This document shows, piece by piece, positions 20,847-63,731 of a stretch of 64,000 nt of DNA. The stretch's first letter is position 1. The number at the start of each line of letters is the position of its first letter. The position numbers were made by a program, and so were the translations under genes. The DNA lies in the IMG/VR virus record IMGVR_UViG_3300044712_000833, positions 32,001 through 96,000 of that record, one strand, 5' to 3'. Below the pieces are notes generated by a model. The model did not search any database and was not told the DNA's origin. It worked only from the letters and a program-made list of their open reading frames with translations. Source of the DNA: a virus.

Positions 20847-20872
20847 ACTATTTTATTTATAAAAGATGTATT

Positions 20873-21298
20873 TTATGTATGTCCTGTTGATCCGAATCCG
20901 CCTCTATTTTGTTCGTTAAGAAAATCTACTTCTTCAAATGTTAATTTTGGTTGTTTTTGGATTATTCTAAATTGAAGGATTCTGTCATTGAAATTTATTA
21001 CAGTATCCCTTGTGGCATAAAAATTAACTCTCCAAACATCATTATTTCCTTTGTAAGATTCATCGATGACACCTATAGAATTGGTAAGTAAAACACCCCA
21101 TTTTGAAAACGTAGATGATCTTGGAGCAATATGGGCTTCATATCCTTCTGGTAATTCCATTGATACCCCTAAAGAAAAAATTTTACTTTCAAACTTTTTT
21201 ATCTCTACTGTTTCTGCGGCTCTTAAATCACACCAATCCCCCTTCTCAATCATAGATAGTTTTTCAATTGGCGCATGATATTTAATTTTAATATTCAA
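20873..21298 (-). CDS. dut: dUTPase (trimeric)
   Basis: APRSS, GVIDESYKG, RGGFGSTG motifs. Confidence 0.92.
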   Translation of the reverse strand: MNIKIKYHAPIEKLSMIEKGDWCDLRAAETVEIKKFESKIFSLGVSMELPEGYEAHIAPRSSTFSKWGVLLTNSIGVIDESYKGNNDVWRVNFYATRDTVINFNDRILQFRIIQKQPKLTFEEVDFLNEQNRGGFGSTGHT

Positions 21299-21674
21299 TT
21301 CTTGTCTCCTTAATTCTCATTATTTCAAAATACGGGTATTCTTCAATTGTATAAAAAACCCATCTAATCCCAAATTTTCGTAATTCCTTCATACAATCTT
21401 TACAAGGCTTTGACAATCCCAAAGAACCATCTTTCTTTTCTCGATATACAAATATTGTTGATCCTTTTATAGATTCTTTTCCGCTATTCTTTAATGCCTG
21501 TATTTCTGCATGAAGACCAGTATATCTTGCTTCAGGATGAGTTTTATACTGATTATGACCTACAGAAACAGGCTTTCCCTTTACTACCAAAACAGCACCT
21601 AATTTATGCCTTGGATGCTGTGATAGTTTAGATATATTTTTTGCTAAACGAAAAAGACTTGGAAAATCATTCAT
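21288..21674 (-). CDS. Cytidine/dCMP deaminase-like zinc protein
   Basis: HAE...KPCKDC. Confidence 0.8.
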   Translation of the reverse strand: MNDFPSLFRLAKNISKLSQHPRHKLGAVLVVKGKPVSVGHNQYKTHPEARYTGLHAEIQALKNSGKESIKGSTIFVYREKKDGSLGLSKPCKDCMKELRKFGIRWVFYTIEEYPYFEIMRIKETRIEY

Positions 21675-21680
21675 GTATTT

Positions 21681-21709
21681 AGTATATCATGATTTTATTA
21701 TTTTGTCAA
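21681..21709 (-). promoter_or_regulatory. Sigma70-type promoter (leaderless start)
   Basis: TTGACA-17-TATACT, 6 nt before ATG at 21674. Confidence 0.7.
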
Positions 21710-21712
21710 GTT

Positions 21713-59100: not shown

Positions 59101-59121
59101 TTTATCTCCTTATTTTTAATA

Positions 59122-59150
59122 AGTATATCATAAAACAAAAATCCTGTCAA
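59122..59150 (-). promoter_or_regulatory. Sigma70-type promoter overlapping a terminator-like hairpin
   Basis: TTGACA-17-TATACT; AAATCCTGTCAA/TTGACAGGATTT inverted repeat at 59139-59171. Confidence 0.7.
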
Positions 59151-59176
59151 GGTCTAATTTTGACAGGATTTAATAA

Positions 59177-62100
59177 CTACTTTTTAGATTTCTTAGAATT
59201 ACTCAATTCATCTAAAGTTACAAATTTTGGATTATTTTTAATTGTCCCCTTTGAAGTGACTGTAAGAATGAAAATTTTACAATCTGAAATATCTGTTTCA
59301 ACTTCATTGTAACTCATTAGTTCTTGAAGAGTTCTAAAATAAGAAACTCCTCCATCAATCATGAAATCAACCAAATCAATTTCTGAGAACTCCAATTCCT
59401 CTGAACTATCGATTACTGCATAAACTGTATTACTCATTTTTCGTCTCCTTTGTTTGTATTATTCTTTAAAAGAAATTCGATTAGCCAAATATAACTCTTG
59501 GAAAAAAGAAGCGATTATATGAGCGATAACTTGCGTTGATATTAGCTCCGCTTCCTCTCTACCGTCATTCAACATTTTCACCATAGAATTAGTATTTTTC
59601 AGAACAAGGACAAGTGAAGTTTTGTCATCTTCCGATATAATAACATCTAATTTTTCAATGGCTTTACTTACTACTTCTTCGTAATTTTGACTCATTATAC
59701 TCCTTTTAATAAAATTAGTCTTTTATCAATTCAATTTCTTGGATTAAATTTTCCAACTGGTCATAATTATACTTACCCCATATAAATTCCCATATTATAT
59801 ATACTCAACGGGTTCGTCAATCCAACTAATATTTCTTCCAATTAACTTAGCAATACTTCCTTTTGGTACAACTACATAATTACAATTCTTTTCCTCGATT
59901 TCCTTATCACTGTAGTTAGAATAATGCCAATAATTCCAATGACCACTGACATATTTTCCATCCATCATCCACCCGTCCCACCTAAAAGGTTTTTCTTGAA
60001 AGATTTCTTCAGTTCCGTCCTCTCCAACACAAAGCCAACTCATATTTTAATCCTTTATAAAATCACAATTTTATTCTTTAAATTTAGCATCACCAGATAA
60101 CGACAATTCCATTAGATACCAATTTATAATGTATGCAATGAGTTGAGTCGATACAAGCTCCGATCCTTCATCCCAGTTATTTAATACCTTGACTATCCGA
60201 TTTGTATTATTCAAAAATAAAACCATGTTTCTCTTTCCTTTTTCGGAAACATCTAGGTTCAAGTCATTGATTACTTTTTCTACCATTTCTTCGTAATTGG
60301 GTTTCATTTATTCTTATCTCCTACAAGTATGAACAAAAAGATTCCAATTGCTAAAAATATTGCGTCTATCCATAGCGCATTGTATCCCAAATGTGGACTC
60401 GTACTATTTCCAATTATGAAACCGTCTATAATCAGATATGACAAAGGACATCCGATAAATGGCAATCCTAAGACTATTCTAGGGTCAAAATGCATTGTCC
60501 GCTCCAATCCACGTTCACATTCTTAACGACAGCCACATAACAAGGCTCTTCGTTTGTAGAAAAAAGACAAACGGGAGTCCCATCGGGTTCAAACATTTTA
60601 ATAACGTCTCCATAAACCAACATCTTGGGGTGAATCTCCACCCAAATGCCAGATAGACTAAATCGAATGAATCTTGTCTCGGACTCTTTCATACTACATG
60701 ACTGATCCCATAACTTTCTTATTTTCATTCCATCTTGGTTTACAGCCCATATTTCAACCGAAGAATACTTTCTCTCTAAGGTTCTAATTCGGGGAATAAC
60801 CTCTCCATATAAAGACGCATTGCTAGGAAATGGAATTTGATATATTTCATTTCCGTTTTCAGTTTCAACCACTGGAACAATACTGATTGTATCTACTAAC
60901 ATTTTTCTCCTTCTAATAAAAGATAAATTTTATTTACTTTTTAAAACAAAAGTATCAGCGAAAAACCAAAAAGCAATTGACATAAATAACAAAGGAATTA
61001 CTGCAAAAATAATGAACCATCCATAAGAAGATATTTTTTCAACAGCAAGCCCAATTCCTCCAATTGATGCGAAAACCATAAGAACAGAAACGCTTTTATA
61101 TGTTAGAAATATAAGAATGTCAATTAATTTTTCTTTATTCATTTTATTTTTTCACTTTTTTCCATTCAAGAAAGTATTGATCTGAAACATAATCTCCAGA
61201 TTTGAATTGTCCAGTGGATAAAACTATTTGAAGAACAATTGCCATATCTTTATGCAACTTCCAACAATATTTCTCTTGTTGAGAAGTTAATCTCAATTCG
61301 CCGCCCTCAATTTCAACAAAGTCTAAATCTATCGCTTCAGCGATACTTCGGGGAATATCAGAGTCTCCATATGGTCTTTTAGAGTCTATATTGACTCTTT
61401 GAGTATCTTCGTTCCAATAAACTAAAATAGACTTTACTAGCTTAATATGATCCCTTGTTACTTCAAAATATTTTTTACTCACTTAGACTCCTCTTGATAA
61501 CAAATGGATGATCCACCAGCCACAGCCTGTAAAGCACAGGAAGTTGATTGACATCCTATAATAAAAACAGTTACGACTACAAGAATAATATATTTTAATC
61601 TTTTCATTCTAATTCTCTCAATCTATTAGATAGTTCGTATAGGTCAGATGTCATTTCTACCCTATATCCGTTTCTAAATATCATATAATTATTTATATCC
61701 CTCCCCCACATAAATGAACAACATTGTTCGACCTCAAATTTCCCATCAAAAATAAAAACCTCTCCTGCTGGTTTCACTTCGGACAATGTGGAGTTAGCTA
61801 TTTCAATATTTATACGATTTACTCTTACAATCTTAATCATAAAACTTTCCCTTTATTAATCTATGTTGAAAACATAACCGCAATTAGAGCAGAGGTTAAA
61901 ATACTCTTTTCTCATTGGAGATAATCGATTAAACCCATAAACTTTTTCATCAGTATATTTTTGATCTTCAAAAACTGTATCATAATCTGTTTCAATGTGA
62001 AGTTCTTCGATGCTTTTACAATTTGGACAAACTTGTTTCCAATATTCATGCCAAGTAGTTATTTGCCTCGGAATTAAAAATTTCTTTGTGTTCATAAAAT

Positions 62101-63731
62101 GTTCCTTTTATTTTCCATCTAGAACTGCGTTTGAAATCAGTTCTCTAATTTCTCCCCAAGGGACTCCGTTATAATTATCATCACCATGAGAAATCCAAGA
62201 ATCGACAAGTTCCATGTAATAAGGTAATCTTTCTTCTGGAGACATATCTTTCCAACAGTATTCACATAAGGGAAAACAGCCACTACCCATTCTGTAAGGT
62301 GTTGAATGGAAATTATCTATAACAAAAGAGATATGACATCTTCCACAAGAAGCGGTATCTGGAAACATTATTTCAGAAATCTTTCCAATCTTAGTTCTGC
62401 TTTGCAACATAAGTTTTTTGTTCATAAAATCTGCCTTTTATTTAGGTTCAAAATTTGGTTCTTCAGGAAGACTCGTCCAGCACTTAGGATCATATACAAC
62501 ATCGTATCCTCCTTGTTCATCTTGCCAACTTCCAATCCTGCACCATCTCCAACCAATGTACCCATTGGGATAGTTCACAGAGTCTTCGTTCCAAGAAACA
62601 TGAACCCACTCCCCTTTTCCATCTGCGCTAAGTTCTTCGCTCCATACAAGAATCGGAGTCCCATCTTTAGGGGCTATATCCATTGAGTTATATTTTGTCA
62701 TTATAAAATTTACCTCTTATTTACTCTTCATAATTTTATTTTGAAGTTCTAAAATTCTATCTTTAGATAAAGGAGGGGCATTGTCAATTTCAATTTCTGT
62801 TGCTACTCCATTGTGGTAAAAAACAACATCCCAATGAGTAATATTATATTTACGCCTTAATGTGTCTTGAATTTTTGAATATTCATTAACCAGAGAAATT
62901 ATTTCTTTCCACTCGGCTTTGTGGAATTCAAAAATATGATTTCTCAAAGGTTTTGCTGAAGCGTTATCGTGAAACCTTCCTAAGTCACTTCCGCATATCG
63001 GACATATTACATTTCTTTTTGTCATCGAATAAAATCCTTCTTTTATTCGTTTGGAATTAATTTAACCAAGACAGGAGCATATGCACTGTGGTTAGTATCG
63101 TAAAACCAGTCGCATGTCTTTTCTTCTGTAACATTAAATGTTTCAACAACTCTCCCTAATCTCCCGCCAATTTCCTTATTTACGATATTTTTAACCTGAT
63201 AAACTTCAGGATAAGTATCTTCCATAAAGAAATCACCAATAGATAAATCGTAAAGATCAACGTACCCAGTTTGACCTACGAACAAGGCAGTAAAATTTTT
63301 CCAGTTCTTTCCCATATTTTACTCTTTTCCTATAATGTAATAAGAATCTAAATTAATTTCAGTTGATATTTTAGATAAAACAAAAACATCAGTTAGTCCG
63401 AAAGTCTCTTCTGATCCAACAATAGAGAACAGACCATCACTATCATATCTACCTACGGTAACGTACTTTGAATCATTTATGCTAACCCAATAAAAACAAT
63501 TTTTTTCTAAGTATTTAATGTTCATACTTAATTCCTTTCATTTGTAATCATATCCTCAATCATCCAATAAGTAGACCAATTACAGGGAACTTTCTCTAAT
63601 AGAATATTATTAAACCTAATCTCATAATTTCTTCGATTATCAACCATTCTAATATCAAAACCATTATAAATAAATGGTTCGCCGCTCAAAAGGATTTCGT
63701 TCATGTCGTCAATACTATTTTGTCCACACAT
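59177..63731 (-). other. Array of about 16 small hypothetical ORFs punctuated by palindromic junction sites
   Basis: Includes paralogs 59459-59695 and 60071-60307, a DUF551-like ORF 62438-62701 (APKDGT...WTSLPEEP) and small membrane proteins. Confidence 0.6.

Follow-up and report, generated by a model that had tools for sequence, protein, structure and literature searches.

An 18-bp palindrome with locus-specific centres marks the boundaries of swapped gene modules in SPbeta-related phages

The window analysed here, a stretch of 64,000 nucleotides, comprises bases 32001–96000 of the 129,715-bp virus record IMGVR_UViG_3300044712_000833 (G+C 33%), and its early genes are punctuated by an 18-bp palindrome, ATAAAA-N6-TTTTAT (hereafter the motif), whose two arms flank a 6-bp centre that differs from copy to copy. 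Judged by its gene content, the genome (G000) is that of a large SPbeta-related phage. With Bacillus phage SPbeta it has in common a YonO-type RNA polymerase, the terminase and neighbouring packaging-region proteins, a YomM-like recombinase encoded just before the tape measure gene, a dUTPase and an HNH protein, and its Pfam matches comprise ribonucleotide reductase, ThyX, DnaB, prim-pol, three DNA-modification enzymes, HNH proteins, an AAA_24 protein and two tyrosine recombinases. YonO is the single-chain RNA polymerase that transcribes the SPbeta late genes. Upstream of the window, at genome positions 5422–8130 on the plus strand, a 902-aa match to YonO shows 25% identity to the SPbeta protein and 36% to that of the relative G003, and since such a polymerase is encoded, this phage probably transcribes its late arm with an enzyme of its own.

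The window holds 29 perfect copies of the motif against 0.17 expected from 100 dinucleotide shuffles, the largest count among which was 2; 28 of the copies fall in 20859–63046 and one lies at 4115. An initial annotation, made from the letters alone, had counted 26, which was too few, and had placed the motif far above chance frequency, which the scan against shuffled sequence that it proposed bears out. The whole record contains 56 perfect copies (Markov-2 expectation 0.1). The geometry is strict, as that annotation had described: spacers of 0–5 and 7–15 bp give 0–2 copies each in the whole record, compared with 56 at a spacer of 6, and the form with swapped arms at spacer 6 has none in the record. 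One-mismatch copies are in excess (22 in the record against 7.4 expected, 14 of the 22 mostly intergenic; 14 in the window, 10 of them intergenic, in keeping with the ten or so near-perfect copies first noticed), and two-mismatch copies stand at background (85 against 86 expected). Together these counts indicate about 70 real sites per genome and strong constraint on all twelve arm positions. Perfect copies lie almost entirely in the minus-strand early arm (53 of 56; genome 52.8–129.7 kb), with three in the plus-strand structural arm, where 4115–4132 is the sole perfect copy inside the window and 16328–16345 is a one-mismatch intergenic copy; the initial annotation had likewise named 4115 as the only copy in the tail module. 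The statement that essentially all copies sit at gene boundaries survives for the 51 of 56 that are mostly intergenic and fails for three copies within called open reading frames (ORFs) of the window, at 28737–28754, 51430–51447 (in the gene for a DUF6642 protein) and 54810–54827.

An exact-18-mer scan of viral contigs recovered motif-rich relatives: G003, a 137.7-kb genome with about 42% amino-acid identity to this phage, has 53 copies, G005 has 15 and G004, an SPbeta-like provirus, has 10, and in all three the motif is restricted to a 6-bp centre. In SPbeta itself, 100 kb of which was examined, there are 34 sites with one mismatch or none, mostly of the form ATAAAA-N6-TTTTA[AT] and overlapping stop codons in the yop–yot operons. 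The distant relative G002 (contigs L002 and L078) has 3 perfect copies in 34.7 kb, but 9 of TAAAA-N6-TTTTA, and its motif may be relaxed. Five Bacillales genomes contain 31, 9, 18, 2 and 4 copies, compared with 5, 8, 14, 5 and 6 of controls. In the Bacillus genome with an SPbeta-like prophage, a 109-kb stretch surrounding the yonO homologue accounts for 18 of the 31 copies, leaving a remainder close to the control count of 5; in a Metabacillus genome 8 of 18 cluster about 40–90 kb from its yonO homologue; and the three further genomes have the motif at control level. The excess is found near yonO-bearing prophages. The motif is phage-borne and not a site of a host-chromosome regulon. Megablast of 20 kb of the window and of G003 against a phage collection gave no match, and tblastn with the tape measure and polymerase gave distant matches only.

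Read on the coding strand, the element has the consensus A-T-R-A ATAAAA K-N4-A TTTTAT n-A-A, followed by an AGGAG-type Shine-Dalgarno (SD) sequence and an ATG 10–15 nt on. Only 6 bp per arm are invariant; a weak 5′ extension (A at −4 in 43 of 56 copies, T at −3 in 42 of 56, A at −1 in 39 of 56) has no symmetric counterpart on the 3′ side. In most copies the upstream stop codon is a TAA within arm 1 or lies immediately 5′ of arm 1, and in about ten the start codon comes from TTTTATG and the centre opens with GG(A), so that the ribosome-binding site is inside the element. The initial annotation had seen both features, and they are found where it placed them, with TAA commonly in arm 1 and TTTTATG as the start at 25339, 38046, 62094 and 62424. 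Among 179 early-arm junctions 60 carry the motif, in strong dependence on the gap between genes: none of 46 overlapping pairs, 1 of 27 gaps of 0–10 nt, 23 of 35 of 11–25 nt, 27 of 30 of 26–45 nt and 9 of 41 longer ones, or 50 of 65 across the range 11–45 nt. Divided at these sites, the early arm falls into 61 blocks; 26 of them are single genes, and the median is 2 genes.

Promoters lie elsewhere. Longer gaps without the motif hold canonical TTGACA-17-TGnTATAAT promoters, and sigmaA-like matches (at most 2 mismatches to TTGACA-N16-18-TATAAT) are present at one of the 60 motif junctions and at none of the 72 tight ones, compared with 15 of the remaining 47; the sites span 77 kb that includes essential replication genes, with 16 sigmaA-like-promoter junctions interspersed. 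A sigmaA promoter was rejected as the identity of the motif, which has no −35 element, carries T at position 6 in 27 of 56 copies but G in 22, and contains start codons inside arm 2. A YonO promoter was also rejected: no copy lies between SPbeta yonK and yonN, and the one mapped YonO start lies upstream of yonK (PMC5467207). The closest published analogue is the family of promoter–stem-loop repeats called PeSLs (Arbiol et al. 2010, PMC2839356; Comeau et al. 2014, PMC4122927), which in T4-type phages lie between stop codon and SD sequence among small accessory early genes (PMC2839356), in dozens of conserved copies at which close relatives show insertions, deletions and replacements. The behaviour is alike and the element is different. 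As described in those papers, a PeSL is about 100 bp long, combines a sigma70 promoter with a G+C-rich terminator stem-loop and has measured activities, whereas this phage has an A+T-only 18-bp palindrome with a promoter-like match at 1 of 60 junctions, no stable stem and a locus-specific 6-bp centre kept in order by relatives, and its hosts are Bacillus-type Firmicutes. A promoter/terminator module of the PeSL kind, which recombination would use merely as repeated DNA, would display the same indels at repeats between close relatives (PMC2839356), yet we consider it highly improbable: a −35 element and a conserved T at −7 are missing, a start codon in arm 2 would precede any transcript start, canonical sigmaA promoters stand at other junctions, there is no G+C-rich stem, and 18 bp is far from about 100 bp.

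Nor does the element fold well. For the hairpin alone the free energy at 37 °C averages +0.24 kcal/mol. Placed in 78 nt of context, the stem has a median pair probability of 0.155 (above 0.5 at 16 of 53 sites), and the minimum-free-energy (MFE) structure contains the hairpin at 9 of 53; the element is therefore predicted not to be a stable RNA hairpin, and the mRNA-processing hairpin that had been offered as an alternative is disfavoured. A wider role in the mRNA, as hairpin, processing site or translation element between cistrons, would suit the position exactly between stop codon and SD sequence, the ten or so copies with SD in the centre and AUG in arm 2, flanks that are asymmetric relative to transcription (ATRA upstream), the greater frequency in SPbeta of TTTTAA as arm 2 than of TTAAAA as arm 1, and a hand-derived count in which 8 of 14 intergenic one-mismatch copies are arm 1 A-to-G changes on the coding strand that keep G-U pairing. 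Such a role is nonetheless very unlikely given the folding results, arms that are invariant and do not covary, and the absence of any advantage that a palindrome would give a single-stranded protein site.

We compared the junctions of this phage with those of two close relatives, L001 and L003 (the latter 22 kb of a 128-kb metagenome contig), whose polymerase is 96% identical and whose shared DNA is about 80–85% identical and mosaic. At syntenic positions both carry the window's 18-mers in unchanged order, down to the centre: of 14 collinear centres, which agree at 79 of 84 bases, 10 are identical. The 70 nt on one or both sides of the shared 18-mers are often unrelated. The copy with centre TATTAC (30817–30834; centres are read on the coding strand) is joined to three upstream and three downstream genes across the three genomes, different in each. 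The interval between GACACA (33739–33756) and CGCTTA (33506–33523, a one-mismatch copy that is perfect in L001 and L003) holds three different cassettes in the three genomes, one of which is a Dam methylase found elsewhere in the window; the 3′ homology of this methylase ends at the border of arm 1 and centre, and its 3′ end is joined to different centres in G000 and L003. At GGTCAA (25020–25037) the identical 18-mer in L001, and at GGCGCA (27708–27725) that in L003, have both flanks unrelated, and at TTCCGA (31300–31317) the upstream side is common to L003 and the downstream side differs in all three genomes. Further copies differ by small changes: the one-mismatch copies GGGTTA (25904–25921) and TAGAAA (43219–43236) are perfect in L003, CATACA (39765–39782, also with one mismatch) reads CGTACA in both relatives, and GCGATA (40005–40022), which follows the DnaB-like helicase gene, reads GAGATA in both. 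The remaining copies of this part of the window are TACAAA (24852–24869), TAGGCA (39280–39297), two one-mismatch junction copies (30837–30854 and 33204–33221), and three perfect ones with distinctive positions: 20859–20876, where the late (plus) and early (minus) arms converge, overlaps the dUTPase stop codon; 25339–25356 has a stop codon overlapping arm 1, a start in arm 2 and an SD-like GAGG in its centre; and ACATAA (38046–38063) holds the start of a Mom-like gene in arm 2.

Each gene pair was scored for retained adjacency in each relative, one cell being one junction in one relative. Motif junctions gave 30 cells, of which 14 had both genes absent and 16, from 12 distinct junctions, were informative; all 16 were broken. 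Non-motif junctions were broken in 22 of 46 informative cells and kept in 24 (tight 14 of 32 broken, other 8 of 14; Fisher p = 1.6e-4 for motif against non-motif). A search of the adjoining 900 nt, with E as high as 10 allowed, recovered none of the 16 missing neighbours. Among 29 same-centre pairs both flanks were alike in 1, one flank in 10 and neither in 18, compared with 1611, 82 and 29 for control shared non-motif 18-mers, and identity is at background directly outside the 18-mer in this group and in the second one described below. Where one flank is homologous, the centre is identical at 10 of 18 junctions. Related phages have breakpoints at the motif, a point that the initial annotation had proposed to check, and its suggestion of one-to-few-gene cassettes bounded by the sites agrees with the 61 blocks of the early arm, among which relatives have exchanged, lost or gained blocks exactly there. 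The only copy of this group with both flanks alike in a relative is GAAGCA (28737–28754), in a conserved ORF; its flanks are kept in L001, so this intragenic copy is not a breakpoint. The DNA-modification genes (an N6_N4 methylase at 34399–35100, the Mom-like gene at 37454–38047 and a Dam-like gene at 38280–38990) are among the most mobile blocks, and in L001 and L003 paralogous methylase genes follow different palindromes, each starting at the arm 2 ATG.

The accessory half of the window (47–64 kb) was compared through contigs of other samples only, and viral-contig scans with the window proteins 55619–56464 and 47082–48995 found no relative. Several contigs end or change partner at copies of the motif. 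A 796-base contig of run X4 is identical to the window over 651 bases, up to 58358, and a contig of run X3 joins 58355 to 59121, both stopping or joining at the edge of the copy at 58338–58355; another X3 contig joins 63046, the edge of 63029–63046, to 63543 with 14 other letters between; a loose X3 contig end lies at 60936, beside 60916–60933; and another sample's contigs begin or join at the intragenic copy 54810–54827. The other perfect copies here are at 46991–47008, 52963–52980, 53205–53222, 53432–53449, 55597–55614, 56479–56496, 57541–57558, 59709–59726 and 60057–60074, together with 62094–62111 and 62424–62441, in both of which arm 1 holds a stop and arm 2 a start; one-mismatch copies are at 53725–53742, abutting the stop codon of a Xer-like recombinase gene, and at the junctions 61839–61856 and 62703–62720.

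The same pattern recurs in a second group of phages, SPbeta compared with Goe12, phi3T, SPR and G004. Motif junctions were broken in 32 of 41 informative cells (9 kept) and others in 80 of 194 (114 kept; p = 2.3e-5). The 104 same-centre pairs had both flanks alike in 27, one in 37 and none in 40, compared with 43,642, 532 and 74 of 44,248 control non-motif 18-mers. Fourteen same-centre pairs of SPbeta and G004, those without both flanks alike, are perfectly collinear, and the centre is identical at 37 of 40 one-flank junctions. At one SPbeta copy (record positions 116414–116431; L081 31998–32015), over which the SPbeta record annotates a stem_loop, homology stops exactly at the last base in natural SPbeta-like phages, at query position 716 in Goe12, SPbetaL2 and Goe13. 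In both groups adjacency is lost more often at motif junctions than at others, in the G000 group at every informative one, and collinear, identical 18-mers stand between unrelated flanks.

Within a genome the centres are all distinct (56 of 56 in G000 and 53 of 53 in G003; the simulated probability of no identical pair under position-specific base frequencies is 0.07 and 0.16, respectively), and in G000 they are over-dispersed, with 20 pairs differing by at most one base compared with 38.1 simulated (P = 0.006). Between distant relatives the centres are not conserved, so the "address" that they could provide is stable only within close groups. These properties bear on the possibility that the palindrome is the operator of a phage-encoded dimeric regulator, a stoperator-like silencer with perhaps an MrpR-like recombinase fold, and that breakpoints coincide with it because such junctions are permissive. 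Perfect dyad symmetry, fixed spacing, some 70 copies inside early-arm transcription units with few in the late arm, and a phage-borne distribution not spread over the host chromosome would all suit an operator, and there is precedent in the cluster A mycobacteriophage repressors, which act at numerous genome-wide stoperator sites (PMC9283540), and in MrpR, a repressor of recombinase fold that binds a repeated SPbeta element (PMC10516654). An operator leaves unexplained, however, why a non-contacted 6-bp centre should be kept at each locus while both neighbouring genes are replaced, and why the centres should be distinct and over-dispersed within a genome; moreover, tblastn found no small DNA-binding protein common to G000, G003, G005 and SPbeta. 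The known elements also differ. Stoperators resemble the motif as short sites in many copies over a phage genome that a phage protein recognises, but they are asymmetric, bound by a monomer and without a variable centre, and the accounts of them in PMC9283540 and PMC6550527 claim no role at mosaic boundaries. SPBRE, the 15-bp MrpR operator at ten SPbeta promoter regions (PMC10516654), is likewise a repeated intergenic element of SPbeta-like phages with a binder of tyrosine-recombinase fold; identity with the motif was rejected on our own de novo consensus from the ten named promoters, approximately AAAWAATATGTATA, which is a different sequence from ATAAAA-N6-TTTTAT, and PMC10516654 describes no boundary role for SPBRE either. 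We regard an operator as unlikely to be the explanation of the motif, although a protein with an effect on expression may bind it as well.

We consider it probable that the palindromes are address-tagged crossover points for in-register module exchange in SPbeta-related phages. Each copy sits between the stop of one translationally coupled block and the ribosome-binding site of the next and has its own 6-bp centre, which would serve as its tag. Two related genomes in one cell, either two phages or a phage and a prophage, would recombine within the same 18-mer, and the exchange would swap everything on one side in register, reassorting modules of one to a few genes with genes and operons unbroken; less often, two different copies of one genome would recombine, with loss or gain of the block between. 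Three features lead us to infer that exchange occurs inside the 18-mer: the element is regenerated perfectly on both products, the 18-mer is the only shared sequence at many junctions, and the locus-specific centre is kept while neighbours change, which a plain operator would not need.

Several points weigh against this reading. Because the junctions are compact, with stop codon, motif and SD sequence in succession, a viable breakpoint must fall at the edge of the motif, and precision alone is no proof of crossing-over within it; motif junctions also have free-standing ribosome-binding sites and may tolerate replacement better. Non-motif junctions break as well, the figure being 22 of 46 as above. 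The G000-group test has only its 12 distinct informative motif junctions, and L001 and L003 are mutually related, as are the four SPbeta-like genomes, so cells are not independent events. The SPbeta set used our own plus-strand gene calls, by which junctions at locus ends may be miscounted, and the control 18-mers overlap one another, which inflates the p-values of the flank comparison. Against a recombinase in particular, the deficit of near-identical centres is not significant in G003 (19 compared with 27.3, P = 0.13), and the centres shared by G000 and G003 number 3, one of which was the search bait. On the same side, five of the 18 one-flank G000 junctions join the homologous flank to a centre that differs at three or more bases, among them that of the one-gene block 25020–24852, which is absent in L001; at least one of the five pairs looks paralogous. 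Finally, in laboratory SPbeta–phi3Ts hybrids 15 of 16 recombination sites lie in long homologous regions (10.1101/2020.05.06.055103); the one non-homologous site is after yosA, near the SPbeta copy at 116414, and the three hybrid records show no break at that copy.

If the palindromes are crossover points, two kinds of machinery could serve them. The initial annotation had recognised in the inverted arms and fixed 6-bp centre the layout of tyrosine-recombinase core sites, and the motif fits that layout; the phage encodes two such enzymes, both with PF00589 matches. One, a 286-aa Xer-like protein and candidate enzyme (53742–54602, minus strand; 1.7e-22), lies inside the array and matches XerC-like, XerA and XerD chains (best 8.5e-17) with LRrSE, GKGG, HrLR and terminal H...Y segments aligned; it has homologues in G003 and G005. 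The other, YomM-like and a candidate enzyme or binder (6398–7393, plus strand; 5.9e-20), lies in the late operon directly before the 1400-aa tape measure gene and is among the better conserved proteins, with identities of 56% to G003, 41% to G005 and 27% to SPbeta yomM; it has no sequence match in the PDB. A RuvC-like junction resolvase gene (5947–6417, plus strand; PF02075, 2.5e-6) overlaps its start. In the G002 contig no YomM-like homologue was found, the syntenic spot included, and the RuvC-like gene is kept there. Across the five host genomes G007–G011, all of which encode PF00589 proteins, YomM-like matches are present in G007 and G008 and absent from G009 and G010; G011 has a weak one, on another contig than its yonO homologue. 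The presence of the protein does not track the motif cleanly, a minor point against a recombinase. A candidate for short-homology recombination is the AAA_24 protein (44266–45210, minus strand; PF13479, 8e-19), this being the family given in the phi3T record for its yorG homologue; the SPbeta record names YorG a Sak4-like annealing protein.

By the logic of dif and lox sites, the enzyme may be a phage tyrosine recombinase that requires matching 6-bp centres, a possibility to which we give somewhat less than even chances; exchange by short-homology annealing or recombination over the 18 bp of identity, through a Sak4-type protein or host RecA, is possible too and in our view slightly less likely. 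In favour of the recombinase are the fixed 6-bp centre, the A-rich inner arm ends, the aligned catalytic-motif segments of the Xer-like enzyme and the conservation of the YomM-like one from SPbeta to this phage. The over-dispersed centres weigh for an active system, whereas the short arms, the address changes and the laboratory hybrids, which recombined mostly in long homology, weigh against a strict recombinase model. Heterospecific lox sites are used for cassette exchange, and a natural form of recombinase-mediated cassette exchange can be imagined, in which a tyrosine recombinase acts on about 70 dif/lox-like sites with shared arms and unique centres, so that the sites of one genome could not recombine together and the same address in a co-infecting relative or prophage could; we rate this, tentatively, as rather unlikely. 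Like Xer/dif and Cre/lox sites, the motif has two inverted arms around a 6-bp central region, which in Xer/dif-type sites is the place of strand cleavage and exchange (PMC5357621), and its inner arm end is A-rich, as in the single-recombinase sites difH (left arm AGTTATGAAAA) and difSL (TTTCCGAAAA; PMC5357621). In the sites described in that paper, Xer arms are 10–11 bp around a 6-bp centre and some end in GAAAA (PMC5357621). The motif differs in having 6 invariant bp per arm, compared with 10–13 bp, and about 70 copies per genome, compared with one; even with the weak ATRA on the 5′ side it is shorter than known core sites, which again counts against a recombinase.

The initial annotation had likened the arrangement to an integron. 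There a promoterless array has intI, attI and Pc together as a platform at one of its ends, and the attC sites are imperfect inverted repeats, tens of bases long, that fold in single-stranded form. The likeness is that attC marks the 3′ ends of promoterless cassettes and that recombination joins unrelated genes at the site. A strict integron, with circles excised and inserted at attI by one integrase acting on folded single-stranded attC, would suit blocks of one to a few genes that are each followed by a site, the presence or absence of a single block between neighbouring sites (24852/25020 compared with L001) and the Dam methylase 3′ end found at different centres in G000 and L003. We give it next to no chance: the sites are perfect 18-bp palindromes, an 18-bp conserved island with a hairpin free energy near zero in place of a long, imperfect, folded element; no attI stands beside an integrase gene with a cassette promoter; the cassettes lie in ordinary operons with many sigmaA-type promoters; the sites extend over 77 kb, essential replication genes included; and most exchanges (37 of 40 and 10 of 18) are in register, between copies of one and the same address, so that integron-like shuffling in the strict sense is not upheld. 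Module exchange at address-tagged palindromes is nearer to the linker model of Susskind and Botstein and to lambdoid boundary sequences, in which short conserved sequences between modules reportedly serve as sites of homologous exchange, and differs from it in having one palindrome family, per-locus tags and about one-third of early-arm junctions occupied. A description of the motif was not found in the literature searched, the 1999 SPbeta genome paper lying outside that search.

Other features of the genome were observed alongside. Four tRNA genes (45999–46988, minus strand: Gly-tcc, Lys-ttt, Met-cat and Trp-cca) precede the perfect copy at 46991–47008, which abuts tRNA-Trp, the gene ending three bases before 46991; a depth peak over 46669–47335 in all four runs probably stems from tRNA-like DNA of other organisms. 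At genome 120.7–126.1 kb (window-equivalent 88.7–94.1 kb), TTTGCAAT(G)-type repeats lie directly 3′ of stop codons, in early-end intergenic regions with sigmaA-like promoters, and may be operators of a distinct family. A DUF4379 treble-clef zinc finger occurs in the window genes 29817–30803 (minus strand) and 2187–3098 (plus strand), to which genes at genome 23354–24337, 110531–111523 and 4220–5419 are related; the group probably consists of free-standing homing endonucleases. Two ORFs match the SPbeta terminase YonF (genome 15657–16943 and 18061–18555); a 279-aa ORF separates them, which suggests a terminase gene interrupted by an inserted element.

The origin of phage mosaicism has long been debated, one view holding that joins are illegitimate and random and are sifted by selection, the other that genomes exchange at short linkers of conserved sequence. 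In the two phage groups compared here, swapped modules are bounded by a single 18-bp element that carries a tag for each locus. One group includes SPbeta and phi3T, for which full Bacillus subtilis genetics exist, so bench experiments could address the question directly. Were a recombinase at work, the palindromes would represent a new kind of multi-site, address-specific recombination and would offer ready orthogonal sites for engineering; if the cassette-exchange form of this idea is true, these phages would possess a form of sex of their own, a dedicated mechanism by which modules are exchanged often, in register and with genes intact. If no recombinase is involved, the palindromes would be the clearest Gram-positive counterpart of the PeSL mechanism.

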